Shown: positions 1-5,882 of the stretch, in pieces
How positions within the stretch are numbered: the first letter of the stretch is position 1
Layout of the letters: every line of letters begins with the position of its first letter
Program-made: the position numbers and the translations under genes
From: a virus
Lineage: Duplodnaviria > Heunggongvirae > Uroviricota > Caudoviricetes
Reading direction: 5' to 3' (one strand)
IMG/VR virus record: IMGVR_UViG_3300029521_000128
Span: 1 to 5,882 of that record
DNA: 5,882 bases
The notes under the pieces: generated by a model
The model's database searches: none
What the model was told of the DNA's origin: nothing
What the model saw: only the letters and a program-made list of their open reading frames with translations

Positions 1-362
1 CGGGAATATCTACGGCAGCAAGCCAGTAATGGGTTAAGTGATAACAGGTGTCTGGAAATATAGGGGCAAATCCAGGTGGTTGTTGCTTTCCCGTTGCTGA
101 AAAAGAAAACGCCAGACTGTTAGCCGGGTATCAGTTATCTGGAGAAATTTTTAAATACCTCACAATTCAGGCGGTTGACTGTTGTCTGGTTTGCGGGGAG
201 TTTGTTAAAAGAAACTGGCATGGTGAATCCCCCTGTGCGGAGGGGCAATCAGCAACTGGTGTTTTGTCACCGACCCTTATCCTTTCTGTGCGGGTTCAGG
301 TGCTGATACTGAACTCACCGGGAGGCACCCGGCATCATGCAATGGCACATAGCGCCACTCTC
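1..362 (+). promoter_or_regulatory. Structured non-coding leader upstream of a tR'-like terminator; possible late-promoter (pR'/qut-proximal) transcribed region
   Basis: No ORF with an RBS. Several short hairpins (CCCCT/AGGGG near 228-244; GTTCAG/CTGAAC at 294-315; CCGGG/CCCGG at 322-336). The 9-mer ATGGGTTAA at 29-37 matches the initial transcribed sequence of lambda pR' as I recall it. Position is immediately 5' of a strong terminator and upstream of the late genes. Confidence 0.3.
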
Positions 363-398
363 CAGCCCCTCTCCGGAGGGGCTGTTTATATTGATTTT
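363..398 (+). terminator. Rho-independent terminator (tR'-like), perfect 9-bp GC-rich stem plus T-rich tail
   Basis: CAGCCCCTC (363-371), loop TCCG, GAGGGGCTG (376-384), then TTTATATTGATTTT (385-398). Confidence 0.8.
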
Positions 399-416
399 GT
401 CAGATGTGAGTAAACT

Positions 417-448
417 CCTTATGGACTTTGTTGTTTTAGTCCATAAGG
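417..448. repeat. Perfect 11-bp inverted repeat (hairpin) overlapping the 3' end of the reverse-strand ORF
   Basis: CCTTATGGACT (417-427), 10-nt loop TTGTTGTTTT, AGTCCATAAGG (438-448). No adjacent T-run on either strand, so more likely an RNA-stability or recombination-junction structure than a classic terminator. Confidence 0.6.
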
Positions 449-754
449 ACATATTTGCAGAGTGCAACGGTTATTAAAGCATTCATTCAATACGTTATCT
501 GTATTTGTAGGACATTCCTGGCTGTTTTTGATTAAATTCCAGAATGTTTTATTGAATGGTACTACGTTGTAAATGGTTAAAGGTAGCACTTTGTTATTGA
601 GCATGATACCTGTGTGAGTCAGTGTAAATATACTTTCAGGAGGTAAGAAAGCATCCGATTGATACCAGATTATTAATTTTATTTTACTCCATATGACTGA
701 AAAAGATATTCCGCATGATGGCTGGATAACTGTATCAATCACAATCCACTTCAT
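419..754 (-). CDS. Hypothetical protein (111 aa), Ile/Asn/Lys-rich with 5 Cys, encoded in an AT-rich insert; function unknown
   Basis: Intact ORF on the - strand. On the coding strand the start is preceded by AAGGAA at 6-nt spacing (...ACAAGGAAACTAA ATG AAG TGG...). Local GC is roughly 33% against roughly 50% in the flanks. No recognisable domain. Confidence 0.45.
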
Positions 755-1014
755 TTAGTTTCCTTGTTTATGTCTTGCTGGTGATGTTCTGAAAAGTATA
801 AATGATATTTTTGAATGTAAACCATAGAGCAGAATTATTTTTCTGATGTTGTTTATTGTTTATTTAAATGCAGGGTGGTTTATATCTCGTCTTGTAGTTT
901 ATCCATGCATATCTGCTTGATGATGAGGTTTTTATTTAAGGTATGGTTTTGTGTTTTTTCTGTATTACATGTCAGGTATTTTAAAGAATTATTTTTCAGA
1001 TGGTGGAAAGAACC

Positions 1015-2976
1015 ATGGCATTTAAACACTATGATGTTGTCAGGGCGGCATCGCCGTCAGACCTTGCGAAACGACTGACACAAAAACTGAAGGAGGGGTG
1101 GCAGCCATTTGGCAGTCCGGTGGCCATCACGCCTTATACCCTGATGCAGGCCATTGCGGCGGAAGGTGATGTCACCACACCTGTGGTGGTGAAGCCGTCG
1201 GATGGAGAAGGCGCAGTTATCAGCACCACCAGCAACCCGGAGTATTACTTTGTTGTTGCCCTGGCCGGGCAGTCAAACGGTATGGCGTATGGTGAAGGGC
1301 TTCCGCTGCCGGAGACATATGACCGTCCGGACCCGCGTATTAAACAGCTGGCGCGTCGCAGCACTGTCACGCCGGGTGGTGCGTCCTGTAACTACAATGA
1401 CATTATTCCTGCGGACCACTGCCTGCATGATGTTCAGGATTTGAGTAAGTTTTCACACCCGAAAGCCAGCGCAGCTCAGTATGGATGCGTGGGGCAGGGA
1501 TTACATATCGCGAAGAAATTGTTGCCGTTTATTCCGGCGAATGCCGGTATTCTTCTGGTTCCGTGCTGCCGTGGTGGTTCTGCATTTTTGGCGGGCGATG
1601 AAGGTACCTTCAGCGAATCCACCGGCGCAAGCGAGACCTCGGCACGCTGGGGTGTAGATAAGCCACTGTACAAGGACCTGCTTACCCGTACTCAGGCCGC
1701 ACTGAAGGCCAACCCTAAAAATATTCTGCTTGCAGTGGTCTGGATGCAGGGCGAGTTTGATTTGAAACAGGGTGCATACGCCACTCAGCCGGGGCTGTTT
1801 GATTCCATGGTGGAAAAATATCGTTCTGACCTGTCGGAATTCGGAGGTCAGTGTCTCGGGGGCTCTCCGTCATCAGTTCCCTGGATTTGTGGCGACACGA
1901 CCTACTACTGGAAGCAGACTTATTCTTCGCAATACGATGCGGTGTATGGTGCATACAAGACGAAATCCGCAAAAAAAATCTTCTTTGTGCCGTTTATGAC
2001 GGATGAAAACGGGCGAAATGTGGGTACCAACGAGCCGTCAGAAGATCCGGATGTTGCGGATATTGGGTATTACGGAGCCGGTGGTCGAACGGACGCCAAA
2101 ACCTGGACGACGGCTGACCGTAAAACGCATTTTGGATCATGGGCACGTCGTGGGATTATTTCCGACCGTCTGGCAACGGCGATTCTTGTGCATGCCGGGA
2201 GAAACGCTGAATTCATTACCGGAAAACAGCCTGATACGGTGAAGCCCACCGGACCTTCCGGTGAAGGTACGGAGAGAGAGCCGGGAGCCCCGGTCAGTAA
2301 CCGAACCCTGATGAGTCTGCTGGCGTCCGGCGAAGACCTGGCATCACAGGGCTGGCGCTATTATCACAAACCGGCGAGCGGAGACAATGTTAACAAAAAC
2401 ATTGCTGAAGCGGTGGTCAGTGATGCGGGGGCTACGGGAGGTAAGGCCCTGCAACTGAATAAACCGGAAAACCACATCTGGTTTCTGGAGCATGATGCAG
2501 CCGGACAGGGAGTGGAGTTACTGAAGAAGGGGGGACGTGTGAGCGTACGGTTTAAGTTGCCGGGTTCACTGGTGCCGAATCAGTTTGCCCTGGGCATTTA
2601 CTGGCAGTTGTCGTCCCTGCCGGAGGGAGTGACGCTGGCAGAGGAAGGCAACGACATGCTGATGTCCTTCTTCCTGCAGACGGATGCGACGAACCTGAAC
2701 GCGATGCACCACAAGAAGCCGAATGCGAAGCTGGATACGTTCGGGGTCTTTGATAACGGATGGCACACACTGGCTTTTGAGTTTGCCGGAAACAACAGCA
2801 TTCAGGTGACGCCGGTACTGGATGAGAAACGGGGGACGCCGTTCACACTGGTGAAATCTCCGGCATCAGGGGCGGCGGACAAACTGCAACTGACAGGCAT
2901 ATCAAAGGCGGCGACATATACGCTGCTGATTGACAGTGTGAAGGTGGAAGTGAACAACGCGGATGCTGCGGCATGA
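1015..2976 (+). CDS. nanS-p: Prophage-type sialate (9-O-acetyl-Neu5Ac) O-acetylesterase, NanS-p-like: N-terminal DUF1737-like region, SGNH/SASA esterase core, C-terminal carbohydrate-binding-like domain
   Basis: 653-aa ORF (658 aa if the ATG at 1000 is used). GQSN serine motif in VVALAGQSNGMAYGEG, typical of the SASA/DUF303 esterase family. Size and position (downstream of tR', upstream of S) match the large yjhS/NanS-like ORF of Stx-type lambdoid phages. Start at 1015 preferred because the purine-rich GGTGGAAAGAA lies 3-8 nt upstream; the ATG at 1000 has no SD. Confidence 0.85.
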   Translation: MAFKHYDVVRAASPSDLAKRLTQKLKEGWQPFGSPVAITPYTLMQAIAAEGDVTTPVVVKPSDGEGAVISTTSNPEYYFVVALAGQSNGMAYGEGLPLPETYDRPDPRIKQLARRSTVTPGGASCNYNDIIPADHCLHDVQDLSKFSHPKASAAQYGCVGQGLHIAKKLLPFIPANAGILLVPCCRGGSAFLAGDEGTFSESTGASETSARWGVDKPLYKDLLTRTQAALKANPKNILLAVVWMQGEFDLKQGAYATQPGLFDSMVEKYRSDLSEFGGQCLGGSPSSVPWICGDTTYYWKQTYSSQYDAVYGAYKTKSAKKIFFVPFMTDENGRNVGTNEPSEDPDVADIGYYGAGGRTDAKTWTTADRKTHFGSWARRGIISDRLATAILVHAGRNAEFITGKQPDTVKPTGPSGEGTEREPGAPVSNRTLMSLLASGEDLASQGWRYYHKPASGDNVNKNIAEAVVSDAGATGGKALQLNKPENHIWFLEHDAAGQGVELLKKGGRVSVRFKLPGSLVPNQFALGIYWQLSSLPEGVTLAEEGNDMLMSFFLQTDATNLNAMHHKKPNAKLDTFGVFDNGWHTLAFEFAGNNSIQVTPVLDEKRGTPFTLVKSPASGAADKLQLTGISKAATYTLLIDSVKVEVNNADAAA

Positions 2977-2977
2977 T

Positions 2978-3015
2978 AAAAAAAGGCCGCCAGCGGCAGG
3001 AATGGAAGCTGGCGG
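2978..3015 (-). terminator. Possible minus-strand intrinsic terminator just downstream of the nanS-p stop
   Basis: 8-bp perfect stem CCGCCAGC (2987-2994) / GCTGGCGG (3008-3015) with a 13-nt loop. On the + strand it is preceded by A7 (2978-2984), i.e. followed by U7 when read on the - strand. No T-run on the + side. The loop is longer than typical. Confidence 0.3.
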
Positions 3016-3112
3016 AGGTAATCCCAATGGAGAATGTAAAGAAAAGATGCTTTCGTATATCGGTTTTTTAAATGAAAACAGTTCTCATTGTCAACCATAA
3101 CGGTAAGAAATT

Positions 3113-3295
3113 ATGACATTTATTCATCAGGTGATGCTGTACTTCTGTACGGCAGTCTGTGTTATGTATCTTCTTTCGGGTGGGTACAGGGCAGTGCGCG
3201 ATTTCTGGCGCAGGCAGATTGATAAAAGGGCCGCTGAGAGAATCAGCGCCAGTCAGTCAGCCGGAAGCAAACCCGAAGATCCGCTCATTCCGTAG
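3113..3295 (+). CDS. Hypothetical small membrane protein (60 aa), one predicted TM helix followed by a basic tail
   Basis: ORF with a hydrophobic segment VMLYFCTAVCVMYLLSGGY and a C-terminal RAVRDFWRRQIDKR region. Weak SD (GGTAAG) 5 nt upstream. Could be spurious. Confidence 0.3.
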   Translation: MTFIHQVMLYFCTAVCVMYLLSGGYRAVRDFWRRQIDKRAAERISASQSAGSKPEDPLIP

Positions 3296-3332
3296 TCACT
3301 TTCTTGACAACACCTTTCAACGAGAAAATCCC

Positions 3333-3578
3333 ATGTCAGAAATCACATCCCTGGTCACTGCTGAGGCAGTGAAGGAAGTCCTGCGCTCTGAAGAAGTCCT
3401 GAGCGCACTGAAACAGAAACTCCGCCAGAACCTTGAGTCGCGTCTTGATGCAGAAGTGGATGCCATTCTGGATGAGCTGCTGGGCGTACCAGCGGTTCCG
3501 GAGCCGGAAGGTATCGCGGGTGACGGGAGTGCTTCAGATGGCGGTGAACCCACACCTGACAGCGACATGATGATGTAA
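3333..3578 (+). CDS. Hypothetical small acidic protein (81 aa), predicted helical with an acidic Gly/Pro/Asp-rich tail
   Basis: ATG at 3333 inside the longer track ORF 3159-3578. Codon usage resembles neighbouring late genes. Weak SD (GAG about 8 nt upstream). Co-oriented with and 76 bp upstream of the holin. Confidence 0.5.
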
Positions 3579-3654
3579 GCCTGCGCAAGGGACCATCGGT
3601 GTGTGCCGGTGGTCTTTATATTGTTGTGAGCTTCCGGATAACGGGAGACGGGGT

Positions 3655-3870
3655 ATGTACCAGATGGAAAAAATCACAACAGGTGTGTCATACACCACGT
3701 CAGCGGTGGGAACGGGCTACTGGTTCCTGCAGTTGCTGGACAGGGTTTCCCCGTCTCAGTGGGCGGCAATAGGCGTGCTGGGGAGTCTGCTGTTTGGGCT
3801 GCTGACATATCTGACTAACCTGTATTTCAAAATCAGAGAGGACCGTCGTAAGGCTGCACGGGGAGAGTAA
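3655..3870 (+). CDS. S: Class II holin (pinholin), phage 21 S21-like, 71 aa with dual-start motif
   Basis: Translation [71 protein letters not shown]. Two TMDs: a weakly hydrophobic Gly/Thr/Ser-rich TMD1 (SAR-like) and a hydrophobic TMD2, then a charged C-terminus. Met1/Met4 dual start. Strong SD GGGAGACGGGG upstream. Closely resembles the S21 / Stx-phage S holins from memory. Confidence 0.9.
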
Positions 3871-3874
3871 TTCA

Positions 3875-4219
3875 ATGACTCAAAACTATGAACTGATTGT
3901 GAAAGGGATCCGCAATTTTGAGAATAAAGTTACGGTAACTTTAGCGTTACGGGACAAAAAACGCTTTGACGGTGAAATTTTTGACCTGGACATCTCGCTG
4001 GACCGTGTTGAAGGTGCCGCGCTGGAGTTTTATGAGGCAGCAGCCAGAAGGAGCATCAGACAGGTCTTCCTGGATGTTGCTGCCGGGTTATGTGAAGGGG
4101 ATGAGCAGTCGCCGGAAAAGCGCCCCGTAATTTTAGAGGCGCAGGATGTGTTGATAACCTACAGAGGAAAACTACCGGGAATAATTACGGGTTCTCTGAA
4201 GAGTCCGCCGAAATGGTAA
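3875..4219 (+). CDS. Hypothetical soluble protein (114 aa) inserted between holin and endolysin; function unknown (possibly DUF826/ydfR-like by position only)
   Basis: ATG 5 nt after the holin stop, with SD GGGAGAG (3861-3867) at about 9-nt spacing, suggesting co-transcription or coupling with S. E. coli-like codon usage. No TM segment and no recognisable catalytic motif. Confidence 0.6.
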   Translation: MTQNYELIVKGIRNFENKVTVTLALRDKKRFDGEIFDLDISLDRVEGAALEFYEAAARRSIRQVFLDVAAGLCEGDEQSPEKRPVILEAQDVLITYRGKLPGIITGSLKSPPKW

Positions 4220-4457
4220 TTTTACCAGCATATTTTTCATCCAGTAATACAGCAAGCCGCCTGAAAGAGTCTTGTTGTTCCTGAGACCATTTGGGATTGC
4301 ATGATTCAAACTGGATTGATGCCAGCGTTGATTGCATCTGTTCCCTTGGAATTGAGAATGCCAGATATGAGAAGGCGACGGTAAGGGTATTCACGTCTTC
4401 CCGAAGCCTGGAAATGCTGTCGAGCAACTCCTGTAGAGAAATGGTGTTATTGTCCAT
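4185..4457 (-). CDS. Hypothetical protein (90 aa) on the opposite strand, convergent with the 114-aa ORF and overlapping it by 35 bp; function unknown
   Basis: Intact - strand ORF. On the coding strand AGGA lies 7 nt upstream of ATG (...CATGAGGATTATTT ATG GAC AAT...). Candidate -10 TACAAT further upstream. Predicted mostly helical, no TM. Contains some rare codons (AGG, CTA). Confidence 0.5.
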   Translation of the reverse strand: MDNNTISLQELLDSISRLREDVNTLTVAFSYLAFSIPREQMQSTLASIQFESCNPKWSQEQQDSFRRLAVLLDEKYAGKITISADSSENP

Positions 4458-4562
4458 AAATAATCCTCATGATTGTATTGACCTGTTAGCAGCCTGAGGC
4501 AACAGGCTGGAACTGATAAACATATCCAGGGCTCAGAAACCGATAAATCCTGATAAATATCC
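4458..4562. promoter_or_regulatory. Divergent intergenic region between the - strand 90-aa ORF and the endolysin, with direct and inverted repeats; candidate promoter/operator region
   Basis: Near-identical direct repeats CTGATAAACATATCC (4512-4526) and CTGATAAATATCC (4549-4561), plus a third GATAAA at 4542-4547. Inverted repeat CCTGTT (4483-4488) ... AACAGG (4501-4506). For the - strand gene a -10-like TACAAT (complement of 4473-4478); the only -35-like hexamer (TTGCCT) sits 19 nt away, so the promoter is weak or uncertain. Confidence 0.3.
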
Positions 4563-5096
4563 ATGAACGCAAAAATCAGATACGGCCTGTCGGCTGCCGT
4601 TCTGGCGCTGATTGCCGCTGGTGCGCCTGCGCCTGACATTCTCGACCAGTTTCTGGATGAAAAGGAAGGTAACCACACCACGGCATACCGTGATGGCGCG
4701 GGTATCTGGACCATCTGCCGCGGTGCCATCCTGGTGGATGGCAAACCTGTCGTTCCGGGCATGAAGTTGTCGAAGGAAAAATGCGACCGGGTTAACGCCA
4801 TTGAGCGTGATAAGGCGCTGGCATGGGTGGAGAAAAACATCAGAGTGCCATTGAGTGAACCCCAGAAAGCGGGGATCGCGTCATTCTGTCCGTACAACAT
4901 TGGTCCCGGTAAGTGTTTCCCGTCGACGTTTTATAAACGAATTAATGCAGGTGATCGCAGGGGAGCGTGTGAGGCGATTCGCTGGTGGATTAAGGACGGT
5001 GGCAGAGACTGCCGTATCCGCTCAAATAACTGTTATGGTCAGGTATCCCGTCGTGACCAGGAGAGCGCGCTGGCGTGCTGGGGAATCGACAGATAA
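4563..5096 (+). CDS. R: SAR endolysin (signal-anchor-release lysozyme, T4-lysozyme/GH24-like muramidase), R21/Stx-phage R type
   Basis: 177 aa. N-terminal Gly/Ala-rich weakly hydrophobic SAR domain GLSAAVLALIAAGAPAP. Catalytic E-x8-D-x5-T triad in EGNHTTAYRDGAGIWT. C-terminal half (NIGPGKCFPSTFYKRINAGD...WWIKDGG) is typical of lambdoid SAR lysozymes. Confidence 0.92.
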   Translation: MNAKIRYGLSAAVLALIAAGAPAPDILDQFLDEKEGNHTTAYRDGAGIWTICRGAILVDGKPVVPGMKLSKEKCDRVNAIERDKALAWVEKNIRVPLSEPQKAGIASFCPYNIGPGKCFPSTFYKRINAGDRRGACEAIRWWIKDGGRDCRIRSNNCYGQVSRRDQESALACWGIDR

Positions 5097-5185
5097 GCAG
5101 AATATTTTGCTGAAAAATAAGGCATGGCCACGCGGGCGGATAACATGAAATCCTGCGAACTGGCGAAACGTAAGTGAATAAAAGT

Positions 5186-5225
5186 AAAAACCCCGTTTGT
5201 TGGCACCAAGCGGGGTTTTGTGTTT
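5186..5225 (+). terminator. Rho-independent terminator between endolysin and Rz (A-tract, 9-bp stem, U-tract)
   Basis: AAAAA (5186-5190), stem CCCCGTTTG (5191-5199) / CAAGCGGGG (5207-5215) with one G-U pair, loop TTGGCAC, then TTTTGTGTTT (5216-5225). Confidence 0.7.
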
Positions 5226-5255
5226 CCTGACTCCGGAAAAGTCAAAGGAGAAAGT

Positions 5256-5393
5256 GTGTTTGATTTTAGCAAACTGATTCGGGAGATTCGAGTGATGGCT
5301 GAAAAATTATCCACCTGGAAGTTCATTCTTATCTGGCTGGTGTTTGTGATTATGGCCTCCGGTTATTTCATCGGTCAGATACGCTGGTGGTGA
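5256..5393 (+). CDS. Candidate small single-pass membrane peptide (45 aa from GTG 5256; 32 aa if from ATG 5295), stop 1 nt before the Rz start
   Basis: SD AAGGAG (5245-5250) 5 nt before GTG 5256. Translation (V/M)[44 protein letters not shown] has an amphipathic N-terminus and one hydrophobic helix. TGA at 5391-5393, Rz ATG at 5395. Below the ORF-track size cutoff, so absent from the supplied track. Confidence 0.35.
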
Positions 5394-5394
5394 A

Positions 5395-5862
5395 ATGAAC
5401 CGCGTACTGTGCGTGGTCATCATTGCCCTGCTGGTGGCCTGTGGTGCGCTTAGTCTGGGGCTGAATCATTACCGTGATAACGCCATTACCTACAAAGCCC
5501 AGCGCGACAAAAATGTCAGAGAACTGAAGCTGGCGAACGCGGCAATTACTGACATGCAGATGCGTCAGCGTGATGTTGCTGCGCTCGATGCAAAATACAC
5601 GAAGGAGTTAGCTGATGCGAAAGCTGAAAATGAAACTCTTCGCGCTGACGTTGCCGCTGGTCGTAAGCGCCTGCGTATCAACGCCACCTGTCCAGGTCCC
5701 GTGCGTGAAGCCACCGGCACCGCCCGCGTGGATAATGCAACCGGCCCCCAACTGGCAGACACCGTTACACGGGATTATTTCACCCTCAGAGAGCGGCTGA
5801 TGACGATGCAGAAGCAACTGGAAGGGGCGCAGGAATATATCCGTACTCAGTGCCTGAAATAA
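5395..5862 (+). CDS. Rz: Rz i-spanin (inner-membrane spanin subunit), lambda Rz-like
   Basis: 155 aa. N-terminal TM helix [20 protein letters not shown] followed by a coiled-coil periplasmic domain. Long stretches ([65 protein letters not shown]) match lambda Rz as recalled. Confidence 0.92.
5615..5800 (+). CDS. Rz1: Rz1 o-spanin (outer-membrane lipoprotein spanin subunit), embedded in the +1 frame of Rz
   Basis: 61 aa. Signal peptide with lipobox LVVSAC (Cys20). Pro-rich mature region [32 protein letters not shown], very similar to lambda Rz1. SD GAAGGAG (5601-5607) 7 nt upstream. Lies entirely inside Rz in a different frame. Confidence 0.9.
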
Positions 5863-5882
5863 GTTTTGTTGATGCGCCGTAT

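Follow-up and report, generated by a model that had tools for sequence, protein, structure and literature searches.

The textbook lambdoid lysis cassette consists of four genes, S, R, Rz and Rz1. In the phage DNA analysed here (a stretch of 5,882 nt from a member of the Caudoviricetes, positions 1 to 5,882 of IMG/VR record IMGVR_UViG_3300029521_000128, hereafter the window), R and Rz are separated by 298 nt, and the locus thus raises the question of whether this interval holds a functional gene and, if so, how such a gene is carried and controlled. A preliminary description, made from the sequence alone, had noted an interval of about 300 bp with an intrinsic terminator, followed by a Shine-Dalgarno (SD) sequence, AAGGAG, and a short ORF that stops 1 nt before Rz; it had suggested that the encoded peptide could be a lysis modulator, a membrane-acting toxin-like peptide or the remnant of a gene that occupies this position in relatives. 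The interval, the SD and the 45-codon ORF were all found as described, and the hairpin was recovered both by a terminator scan and by folding (Table 1).

Table 1. Features of the R-Rz region (positions in the window; a full stop marks a feature of both strands)
Feature	Position	Strand	Remarks
Phage lysozyme R (endolysin)	4563..5096	+	Pfam PF00959, E = 1e-23; upstream neighbour
Post-endolysin spacer	5097..5186	+	Outside the cassette; common to relatives with ant here
Predicted cis-antisense RNA	5178..5257	-	About 80 nt; predicted
GC-rich hairpin	5187..5219	.	13-bp stem, 7-nt loop; U-runs on both strands; 5' boundary of the cassette
Leader	5220..5255	+	SD-occluding stem
SD AAGGAG	5245-5250	+	Upstream of GTG at 5256
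45-codon ORF	5256..5393	+	GTG start, TGA stop; 45-aa membrane peptide ending RWW
Candidate extended -10 TGCTAAAAT	5263..5271	-	Reverse complement of codons 3-6; predicted start near 5256
Internal SD-like GGGAG and in-frame ATG of codon 14	5281..5297	+	GGGAG 5281-5285; ATG 5295-5297
Weak -35 slot TCGAAT	5286-5291	-	Codons 11-12
Rz i-spanin	5395..5862	+	Pfam PF03245, E = 4e-51
Rz1	5615-5800		Inside Rz

The peptide gene and its product

The endolysin that precedes the interval has a hydrophobic N-terminus like that of phage 21 R, and the record of phage H-19B likewise notes that phage's own R as similar to phage 21 R. With regard to the short ORF, dN/dS was 0.09-0.17 in its own frame as compared to at least 0.75 out of frame, and across 80 E. 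coli-type viral loci the ORF varied at just three sites, all of them third-codon positions. Because it is under purifying selection, the ORF is more than a chance reading frame, and its substitution pattern and homologs mark it as a genuine conserved gene for a small, predicted membrane protein. The peptide matched the PHROG 6632 profile over its full length (residues 1-45 on positions 1-45 of 45, E = 1.2e-29, 102.9 bits), and an identical protein is annotated by PGAP in an O111:H8 genome (WP_000459345.1), although the gene was left unannotated in most deposited phage records. PHROG 6632 is a phage protein family of unknown function.

Both hydropathy and an AlphaFold2 model bore out the amphipathic N-terminus and single transmembrane (TM) helix that had been proposed. 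The amphipathic helix covers residues 4-17 (hydrophobic moment 0.66) and the TM segment residues 24-42 (mean Kyte-Doolittle 2.13), and the model (mean pLDDT 86) places helices at residues 4-17 and 20-44 in a helix-break-helix arrangement, with just RWW forming the C-terminus after the TM helix. A Pfam search of the peptide gave nothing at E <= 1 beyond noise and no toxin, Hok/Gef or holin family; searches of NCBIfam, PADLOC and the PDB gave no meaningful match, and literature searches by peptide sequence, RefSeq accession and PHROG number gave no match. A membrane-acting toxin-like peptide and a lysis modulator are the leading ideas for what the product may do.

Mobility, distribution and contexts of the cassette

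The reading frame proved to be conserved well beyond the window, with homologs in Pseudomonas phages as well as throughout Enterobacterales; identity between genera is 50-67%. When a Yersinia copy located between baseplate genes was compared to the window by blastn, the match covered exactly 5187-5393, and a match with an Izhakiella copy located last in a cluster of tail genes covered 5187-5391. Given homology over exactly 5187-5393 with copies between baseplate genes (Yersinia, Pantoea and phage SEN34), the hairpin, the leader and the ORF therefore move jointly as one promoter-less cassette; a promoter scan found no plus-strand promoter-like site anywhere in the window. These alignments identify 5187-5393 as a real, widely conserved mobile cassette of 207 bp and assign the hairpin to the peptide gene, with which it travels.

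In contexts of the lysis type, an endolysin (PF00959, GH19 or GH108) lies upstream of the cassette and a spanin (PF03245 or DUF2514) downstream; the cassette is next to Rz with a 1-nt gap in 77 of the 80 E. coli-type viral loci (TGA 5391-5393 and ATG 5395 in the window), and in Salmonella and E. fergusonii the same junction of stop codon, 1 nt and ATG precedes spanins of either type. In other contexts the cassette lies 3' of a baseplate spike, DUF2612 or LPD38 gene; the SEN34, Yersinia and Pantoea copies are located between baseplate spike and wedge genes and a Pseudomonas phage copy among tail genes. Since copies occur between baseplate or tail genes, the cassette is not tied to lysis genes. 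In SEN34 the endolysin overlaps the spanin directly, and in Qin of E. coli K-12 rrrQ overlaps rzpQ and the cassette is absent; data sets on K-12 small proteins and Term-seq are therefore uninformative here. In being present or absent between conserved neighbours of related phages the cassette resembles a moron, and its boundaries are sharp. Carriers of the cassette account for 872 of 5426 complete E. coli genomes (approximately 16%), many Stx1, Stx2a and Stx2c phages being among them.

Each context that was characterised is a Q-antiterminated late operon, and these genome comparisons show an association with Q. SPN3UB, SEN34 and the E. fergusonii prophage all carry a Q gene, and STnc100, an RNA of the pR' type, lies upstream within the window.

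RNA structure, the predicted antisense RNA and alternative readings

The hairpin that opens the cassette reads AAAACCCCGTTTG-ttggcac-CAAGCGGGGTTTT and is followed by TTTTGTGTTT, and its tail on the minus strand is TTTTTACTTTTAT. The latter U-tail corresponds to an A-run formed by the final ~10 nt of the spacer (AATAAAAGTA, 5177-5186), and an A-rich run is found 5' of the hairpin in every family member. The hairpin folds at -22.1 kcal/mol (z = -2.65), with 1 of 200 shuffles folding as well, and within the window the dG per strand is -18.1 for plus and -15.1 for minus. Across 17 diverse copies, 94% of the cells in the hairpin are paired and 6 of its 13 pairs are compensated; none of 500 RNA-structure shuffles reached the observed score. 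By this covariation, the hairpin is a conserved terminator-type structure, and it has the form of a bidirectional intrinsic terminator. Only 36 nt separate it from the start codon, and in this leader UUUCCU (5223-5228) and GACU are predicted to pair with AGUC and AGGAGA (5240-5251), which would bury the SD. When the 17 aligned members were folded one by one, most formed a stem that occludes the SD, and in the consensus stem of the leader (stem 2) pairing reaches 81% and 4 pairs are compensated; in the Pseudomonas leader, for example, CATG...CATG replaces CTTG...CAAG. Covariation thus supports conservation of the SD stem as well as of the hairpin.

What is new here is that frozen synonymous sites of the ORF appear to spell an extended -10 promoter on the minus strand. 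Synonymous sites are frozen at codons 3-6 and 10-12. Among 26 sequences, the degenerate third positions of codons 3, 4, 5, 10 and 12 never vary, with codons 3-5 invariant as AGC, NTT and GAT, while variation is seen at codons 7-9 and at degenerate codons of the TM segment. On the minus strand TGnTA...T is found in all 18 diverse members examined, and the gap from this -10 motif to the complement of the start codon is 4 nt in 16 of the 18. The Azoarcus copy has Ile in place of Ser5, yet retains the -10 motif as TGATAAAAT. The probability of the motif given the amino acids is 0.008-0.24. In one sequence a single TGnTAnnnT is not significant (11 found as compared to 9.7 expected), and the case for a promoter therefore rests on conservation among related sequences. 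The -35 slot, which reads TCGAAT or TCGCAA, is weak (3 of 6 positions); a rare Arg codon, CGA, is kept in 26 of 26 sequences and is the sole Arg codon that gives T-x-G at this slot. An unrelated family of 60-aa ORFs that has the same leader carries TATACT or TACACT at the identical 4-nt spacing. Homology between the 45-aa and the 60-aa family (phrog_1115) was considered and rejected (hhalign probability 0.1%), and peptides intermediate between the two families are more likely recombinants.

A transcript from the candidate promoter would be an RNA with a stem-loop at its 5' end, the part that matches the start codon and SD in antisense, and with its 3' end at the hairpin terminator with its U-tail; RNAs of 80-86 nt with the same shape were predicted in all 14 family members folded. 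A small antisense RNA is thus probably encoded opposite the peptide gene and would silence the peptide until late phage transcription, and its predicted layout over the start codon and SD resembles that of type I toxin-antitoxin (TA) systems. An Rfam search of the cassette region (E <= 5) found no antitoxin RNA family and returned only a chance, sub-threshold rimP-leader match (E = 0.99, 5177-5252, minus strand).

Several other candidates for a minus-strand promoter or for the cassette RNA were rejected. A promoter-like site at 5378..5349 on the minus strand, found by a generic scan, has a -10 (CATAAT) that is not conserved in the Salmonella or E. fergusonii copies. Among published prophage sRNAs, PasA and PasC are both located between esterase and holin and PasB in a structural operon, PasD is related to STnc100, EcOnc10, 11 and 12 lie just 3' of Rz, and EcOnc33 runs opposite the 3' end of the esterase gene. 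The Sakai prophages Sp6, Sp10 and Sp15, which were examined against an Hfq-CRAC sRNA table, have the ant arrangement in place of the cassette.

The reading that we tentatively favour, with a confidence that stops somewhat short of even, is that of a promoter-less mobile cassette (5187-5393 plus the ~10-nt A-run) of Q-antiterminated late operons, which comprises the peptide gene and a probable antisense gene of ~80 nt. From the features above we infer that an antisense RNA is made, that it has a regulatory effect and that the peptide is active. The extended -10 within codons 3-6 would serve as the antisense promoter and the hairpin as the antisense terminator. In a lysogen or in early infection, plus-strand transcription that lacks antitermination would halt at the hairpin, and constitutive antisense RNA would cover the start codon and SD of whatever sense RNA escapes termination, with the local stem that buries the SD as an additional block. 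After induction, Q-modified RNA polymerase would pass the hairpin at a high rate; heavy read-through would then out-titrate the antisense RNA and interfere with its convergent promoter. The peptide would be translated from GTG, and possibly also from ATG14, with Rz translated just behind it. Inserted in the inner membrane and with a cytoplasmic N-terminus, the peptide would act late, most likely by perturbing the membrane and hence favouring lysis or lysis timing, as HokW does in phage Sp5.

The ORF could alternatively be an ordinary accessory gene of the late operon that has a structured 5' leader and no antisense RNA, a reading that we consider unlikely overall but a serious competitor. The hairpin would then be only a plus-strand terminator or mRNA stabiliser that Q-modified polymerase ignores, the frozen codons would reflect constraints on initiation along with a dual start (45 and 32 aa), and the peptide would be a non-toxic membrane partner. 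This account draws on the internal SD-like GGGAG 9 nt 5' of ATG14: Met14 is present in 26 of 26 sequences, Glu10 is always encoded by GAG, and the 32-aa form that would start at ATG14, a possible second start, is predicted by some gene callers (P0022, P0023). The frozen codons could accordingly represent translation-initiation needs plus an internal SD for Met14. The SD-occluding stem is itself a plus-strand feature, and in most members the hairpin pairs slightly better on the plus strand, via G-U pairs. Dual in-frame starts are also known in a prophage toxin gene, sprG1 (PMC10579593). An ordinary accessory gene leaves unexplained why AGC, NTT and GAT never change at codons 3-5, why the motif persists when Ser5 is replaced by Ile, and likewise the conserved A-run 5' of the hairpin, which provides a U-tail on the minus strand, and the -10 hexamer at the same spacing in an unrelated ORF family.

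As an insertion polymorphism between conserved genes, the cassette could alternatively be a moron for lysogenic conversion or defence, with the peptide or a trans-acting antisense RNA made in the lysogen for superinfection exclusion, abortive infection or host regulation rather than for the late programme of the phage itself. Trans-targeting prophage sRNAs are found in the same late regions, and one distant homolog, a solitary copy, has ParE/RelB/HicB TA modules around it and, 350 nt upstream, a plus-strand promoter-like site. We consider this rather improbable, however, as the cassette has no plus-strand promoter, the ORF stands directly behind a terminator, PADLOC gave no match, and the abutment to Rz in nearly all E. 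coli-type viral loci looks like operon membership.

That abutment, together with the SD-like sequence for Rz that the final codons of the peptide provide (TGGTGGTGA), could also suggest a leader ORF that acts in cis only, i.e., one whose translation brings ribosomes to the Rz start by UGA-N-AUG coupling, with the SD-like GGTGGTGA supplied by the final codons and with a peptide that has no function of its own. Such a role is very improbable considering the strong purifying selection on the amino-acid sequence; in addition, the family is kept where the next gene is 8-25 nt away and has its own SD and where there is no plus-strand ORF within 100 nt downstream, and RWW is retained in homologs with TAG or TAA stops.

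Finally, the relationship to relatives with ant bears on the suggestion in the preliminary description that the interval holds a remnant. The Sakai prophages have the order R-ant-48aa-Rz and diverge from the window at the first bases of the hairpin; the R-ant interval of Sp15 matches the window at 5099-5191 (83%) and then diverges. In view of this divergence at the start of the hairpin, ant and the cassette are alternatives at one insertion point. While ant is located between R and Rz in many Stx prophages, including Sakai Sp6, Sp10 and Sp15, we regard a non-functional deletion scar of an antirepressor gene with a fortuitous ORF as refuted, since nothing in the interval resembles the ant segment, ant-type intervals are homologous to the window only as far as 5191, at the start of the cassette, the ORF is 50-67% identical across genera with dN/dS of about 0.1, and homology to copies in other contexts is sharply delimited (5187-5393).

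The conserved peptide gene adds a fifth gene, for a small membrane protein, to the lysis cassette of the E. coli carrier genomes counted above. If the proposed antisense lock is true, the cassette would represent a new family among type I TA-like systems and a compact means for the safe carriage of a dangerous membrane peptide, restrained by a terminator and an antisense RNA and freed only by antitermination, and it may matter for when Shiga-toxin phages lyse their hosts and for the release of toxin. With the signature confined to synonymous sites, mutations could also inactivate the putative promoter and leave the peptide unchanged.

Comparison with known systems

The geometry predicted for the cassette is the same as that of SymE-SymR in E. 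coli, for which Kawano et al. 2007 reportedly described a cis-antisense RNA of ~77 nt that is transcribed from a promoter a short way into the toxin ORF. SymR is said to cover the start codon and SD and to end at an intrinsic terminator within the 5' leader of the toxin, and SymE is reportedly a soluble protein of 113 aa with its own LexA-controlled promoter. By contrast, the cassette, whose antisense RNA is a prediction, encodes a 45-aa membrane peptide, has no promoter of its own for it and places a two-way terminator in the path of the sense transcript; the two systems are similar neither in sequence nor by Rfam. It is also atypical for type I TA loci to have a plus-strand terminator ahead of the toxin gene. 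With 45 aa and one TM segment, the peptide has the size and hydrophobicity of type I toxins (membrane peptides of <60 aa), although its charged N-terminal helix and C-terminal TM segment are unlike most known ones, and by sequence neither peptide nor RNA belongs to the known families (among others Hok, Ldr, Ibs, TisB and ShoB; Sok, Sib, Rdl and SymR).

With regard to small membrane proteins of lysis cassettes, the dual-start holin/antiholin genes (lambda S105/S107 and phage 21 S68/S71) offer a further likeness, in that the cassette may have an in-frame pair of starts whose products differ by a positively charged N-terminal extension. The peptide differs from holins in having a single TM segment and a 3-residue C-terminus rather than a charged C-terminal tail, and copies among baseplate or tail genes set it apart from genes with an obligate location in the lysis cassette.

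The hokW-sokW system of the Stx2 phage Sp5 was found to accelerate lysis and to double phage release (PMC8621323). It shares with the cassette a small inner-membrane peptide, a lambdoid prophage of the Stx type and an antisense promoter inside the coding region (predicted here), and hokW-sokW is released upon induction and promotes lysis and phage release, a behaviour to which the cassette is likened by analogy. In Hok, however, the TM segment is N-terminal and the tail periplasmic, and the gene has a promoter of its own, a mok leader ORF and control through fold-back of the mRNA, whereas the cassette is a 207-bp unit inside a late operon and encodes a peptide in which the amphipathic helix is N-terminal and the TM segment C-terminal; neither a Pfam Hok/Gef nor an Rfam Sok match was found in it. 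The sar RNA of phage P22, which acts on ant in immI, is, like the RNA predicted here, a short antisense RNA on a ribosome-binding region in a lambdoid late operon (epsilon34 paper, PMC2629481), and its target would be harmful if expressed at the wrong time; this target, however, is an antirepressor and not a membrane peptide, and there is no similarity in sequence or position. Genes for sRNAs of the AsxR/AgvB type (51-60 nt) have Rho-independent terminators and run against the Q-dependent late transcript at moron insertion sites (PMC4104026); they differ in being located 3' of pR' morons, acting in trans as anti-sRNAs and not overlapping the start of a small ORF, and an Rfam search of the window gave no AgvB or AsxR match.

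As in the moron concept (Juhala et al. 2000, as used in PMC2629481 and PMC4104026), the cassette is an extra, terminator-bounded gene between conserved late genes. A classical moron, however, has its own promoter upstream and its terminator downstream, whereas in the cassette the terminator precedes the gene and the sole promoter-like element faces the other way. It is possible, though we would not call it likely, that the cassette exemplifies an undescribed class of antitermination-gated, antisense-locked small-toxin modules, in which a two-way terminator both blocks sense transcription and ends the antisense RNA, the peptide serves as a lysis booster or timer made only under Q, and the same leader and antisense scaffold has come to serve at least two unrelated families of peptides in phages of Enterobacterales and Pseudomonas.

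The 45-codon gene and its surroundings

The late region of a lambdoid prophage makes up the window; no stx genes were found in it between the STnc100 RNA and the esterase, and it is thus a non-toxigenic relative of Stx phages. STnc100, a short leader RNA of the pR'-tR' type, has been tied in a 2026 preprint to the PasD sRNAs, and PasA and PasC sRNAs have been reported at the esterase-holin position, i.e., the site of window 2977-3654. EcOnc33 (Sakai 1557089-1557136), a Northern-confirmed, Hfq-bound sRNA of approximately 71 nt, lies antisense to the homologous Sakai esterase gene at its 3' end, and the window may encode an equivalent sRNA. E. coli WP7-S17-ESBL-01 carries a sequence identical to the window, in which PGAP leaves the gap between the lysozyme and 'lysis protein' genes unannotated; the RefSeq entry for that sequence lists 'lysis protein' only, leaving the Rz1 lipoprotein ORF unannotated as well.

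Features of the window with positions, strand (where assigned) and remarks
Feature	Position	Strand	Remark
STnc100-type pR' leader RNA	189-393	+	Rfam, 133.5 bits vs gathering score 47
Terminator	363-384		in STnc100 region
SASA/nanS-p-type esterase	1000-2976		
Terminator-like hairpin	2987-2999	-	just past esterase stop
DUF1378 ORF	3113-3295		between esterase and holin
DUF826 ORF	3333-3578		between esterase and holin
Terminator-like hairpin	3588-3617		directly upstream of holin
Class II holin, phage-21-type	3655-3870		
YdfR/DUF1327 ORF	3875-4219		
90-aa ORF	4185-4457	-	overlaps final 35 nt of YdfR gene; hypothetical protein WP_000369850.1; no Pfam match
Extended -10-like TGGTAAAAT	4219-4227	-	
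PF00959 lysozyme	4563-5096		
Hairpin	5187-5219		U-run right after
SD AAGGAG	5245-5250		
45-codon ORF	5256-5393		start GTG at 5256; stop 5391-5393
Rz	5395-5862		ATG at 5395
Rz1	5615-5800	+	embedded in Rz

A terminator scan and folding located the hairpin that the preliminary description had placed between endolysin and Rz, and the SD, the short ORF ending 1 nt ahead of Rz, and the amphipathic N-terminus (helix at residues 4-17, hydrophobic moment 0.66) with one TM helix (residues 24-42) were likewise present. The peptide ends in RWW, and its net charge predicts an N-in topology. PHROG 6632, a family without known function, matches it end to end (E = 1.2e-29) and is the sole family membership; searches of Pfam, Rfam, NCBIfam and PADLOC placed the cassette in no described toxin, holin or antitoxin-RNA family. 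In an O111:H8 genome, PGAP annotates an identical protein as WP_000459345.1. As databases already list the ORF as a hypothetical protein, the gene is not in itself new.

A check for conservation found homologs across genera and a dN/dS of 0.09-0.17 in the annotated frame versus 0.75 or more in shifted frames; this comparison used the Salmonella and E. fergusonii copies (67% and 82% peptide identity, respectively), from which the differences cluster at third codon positions. The peptide shows no variation across 80 E. coli-type viral contigs, in which the variable sites of the ORF are three third-codon positions only. Homologs were found in Citrobacter, Edwardsiella, Yersinia, Pantoea, Brenneria, Sodalis, Izhakiella, Trabulsiella, and an Azoarcus MAG; isolated phages with a homolog are SPN3UB, FSL SP-016, SEN34, and Pseudomonas phage YMC11/02/R656. 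When 1.84 billion representatives were searched exhaustively with a profile, only 40 clusters were obtained, all of 32-86 aa and none fused to a larger domain. The N-terminal SKLIRELRxM is the best conserved part of the family. The ORF also contains an internal GGGAG-N9-ATG14, which may yield a second, 32-aa product; two peptides are made from the prophage toxin gene sprG1.

Mobility and the R-Rz junction

Both neighbours of the cassette (i.e., hairpin, leader and ORF) can be seen in 77 of the 80 E. coli-type viral loci, and in all 77 it lies between R and Rz; the interval occurs in approximately 872 of the 5426 complete E. coli genomes. The neighbouring genes may be unrelated from one copy to another: a P22-like Salmonella prophage has an HP1-type holin, a lysozyme and Rz there, E. 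fergusonii has holin_8, a GH19 endolysin and a DUF2514 spanin, and Edwardsiella combines a GH108 endolysin with a DUF2514 spanin. Outside the lysis genes, the cassette is located between baseplate spike and wedge genes (SEN34, Yersinia, and Pantoea), behind DUF2612 or LPD38 genes (Izhakiella, Brenneria, and Symbiopectobacterium), or among tail genes (Pseudomonas phage). Nucleotide homology with the Yersinia copy covers exactly window 5187-5393, from the first hairpin base to the stop codon. Six of the 13 hairpin pairs are compensated, with 94% of cells paired; a leader stem that pairs the distal U-rich tract with the SD reaches 81% pairing and has four compensated pairs, and the Pseudomonas copy, which is 50% identical, keeps both structures. 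Judged from these alignments, the hairpin is part of the peptide gene and the two move as a unit. We are highly confident that the ORF is a real gene and that the cassette is mobile.

While the preliminary description was right to suspect a gene here, its alternative of a remnant of a gene present here in relatives did not stand: a deletion scar of the antirepressor gene ant is ruled out by the Sakai Sp15 spacer, which matches window 5099-5191 and diverges at the hairpin start. Sakai Sp6, Sp10 and Sp15 have the order R, spacer of approximately 270 nt, ant, 48-aa TM ORF, and Rz; in other relatives, what comes after the same hairpin and leader is a 60-aa ORF (phrog_1115) and then a 43-aa ORF (phrog_4906), or else a 37-aa derivative, and the junction is empty in K-12 Qin and SEN34. 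Given these alternative contents, the junction is a hot spot, and its fillings number at least four (45-aa ORF; 60-aa plus 43-aa ORFs; 37-aa ORF; ant plus 48-aa ORF), which were compared at relatives' loci L003 1598-1935, L004 1598-2096, L014 2595-3100, and L235 7742-8734; a small single-TM ORF abuts Rz at the end of every one.

Several further arrangements were observed. By eye, the 48-aa ORF resembles the 43-aa ORF. An E. fergusonii locus (L010 3660-4145) has a second, 50-aa TM ORF upstream of the cassette, ending KWW-TGA-T-ATG and followed by the apparent first four Rz codons (MSRV) and then the hairpin; from its sequence, this looks like a recombination footprint at a repeated TGGTGGTGAnATG junction. 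Chimeric peptides (P0044-P0052, loci L108-L227) join a 45-aa-family N-terminus, xSKLIRELRLM...WKF, to a 60-aa-family-like C-terminus, ...FLYGVARLIEAIKQ, despite which the two families lack profile-profile similarity. A distant 44-aa homolog (P0055; L231/L232, 400-3100) keeps the hairpin and a minus-strand -10; it is alone in an island of ParE/RelB/YafQ/HicB toxin-antitoxin modules with terminase genes adjoining, and a plus-strand promoter-like TTTACA-17-TATCAT lies approximately 350 nt upstream of it.

A candidate antisense promoter within the gene

Among 26 distinct ORF DNAs, degenerate third positions never vary at codons 3 (GAT, 25/25), 4 (NTT, 26/26), 5 (AGC, one of six Ser codons, 26/26), 10 (GAG, 24/24), and 12 (the rare codon CGA, 26/26), while codons 7-9 and degenerate TM codons show synonymous variation. 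Read on the minus strand, codons 3-6 give TGCTAAAAT, an extended -10 element, and codons 11-12 occupy the -35 slot at 17-nt spacing, where T-x-G is possible with no Arg codon but CGA. A single occurrence of the -10 motif is uninformative (11 matches in the window versus 9.7 expected); it is conservation of the motif that constitutes the evidence for the putative promoter. The motif is present in 18/18 diverse members, including those with underlying residues NSSK, HISR, and YFSK; in the Azoarcus copy, Ser5 is replaced by Ile, yet the motif is kept as TGATAAAAT. With the encoded residues and the codon usage of E. coli taken as given, its chance is 0.008-0.24 per context in the eight residue contexts computed. 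The hexamer ends 4 nt before the start-codon complement in 16 of the 18 members, and the unrelated 60-aa family, which has the same leader, carries TATACT or TACACT at the identical 4-nt spacing.

All members that were folded have a hairpin that is stable on both strands and flanked on each side by a U-run, and the upstream A-run that supplies the minus-strand U-tail is conserved. The predicted antisense transcript would start at approximately 5256, run over the start codon, SD and leader stem, and end at the hairpin; in the members examined, it would measure 80-86 nt and take a normal sRNA shape. We consider the existence of this RNA somewhat better than an even proposition. No publication on the peptide, the cassette, or an RNA located here turned up in a literature search, and the cassette architecture and probable antisense RNA appear to be undescribed.

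Proposed working and known systems

Every cassette context that could be characterised is a Q-antiterminated late operon; Q genes were found in SPN3UB, SEN34, and the E. fergusonii prophage, and the window has the STnc100/pR'-type RNA upstream. In SEN34, one Q-dependent operon runs from holin to tail fibres, with the cassette 17 kb downstream of the lysis genes. Because the late operon is Q-antiterminated, a terminator can be tolerated between essential genes, which suggests that the hairpin serves to let only terminator-resistant polymerase reach the ORF. Before induction, three locks would hold the gene silent: the terminator, the antisense RNA over the ribosome-binding site, and the SD-occluding stem. 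Q-dependent late read-through would free all three, and would also transcribe against the antisense promoter; the peptide would then enter the inner membrane. The full mechanism is offered tentatively, at slightly under an even chance.

The most likely role of the peptide would be a membrane-perturbing, lysis-promoting one, as judged by analogy with the HokW protein of phage Sp5; HokW is made upon induction, locates to the inner membrane, brings growth arrest forward by approximately 40 min and doubles phage release (PMC8621323). Equally, the conserved N-helix on the cytoplasmic side could provide a surface for protein interaction.

Among known systems, SymR/symE is nearest to the cassette in geometry and hok/sok, chiefly hokW-sokW, in biology, while P22 sar/ant and the convergent AsxR/AgvB sRNA genes provide phage precedents. 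Unlike type I toxin-antitoxin loci, the cassette has no sense promoter and places its terminator in the path of sense transcription.
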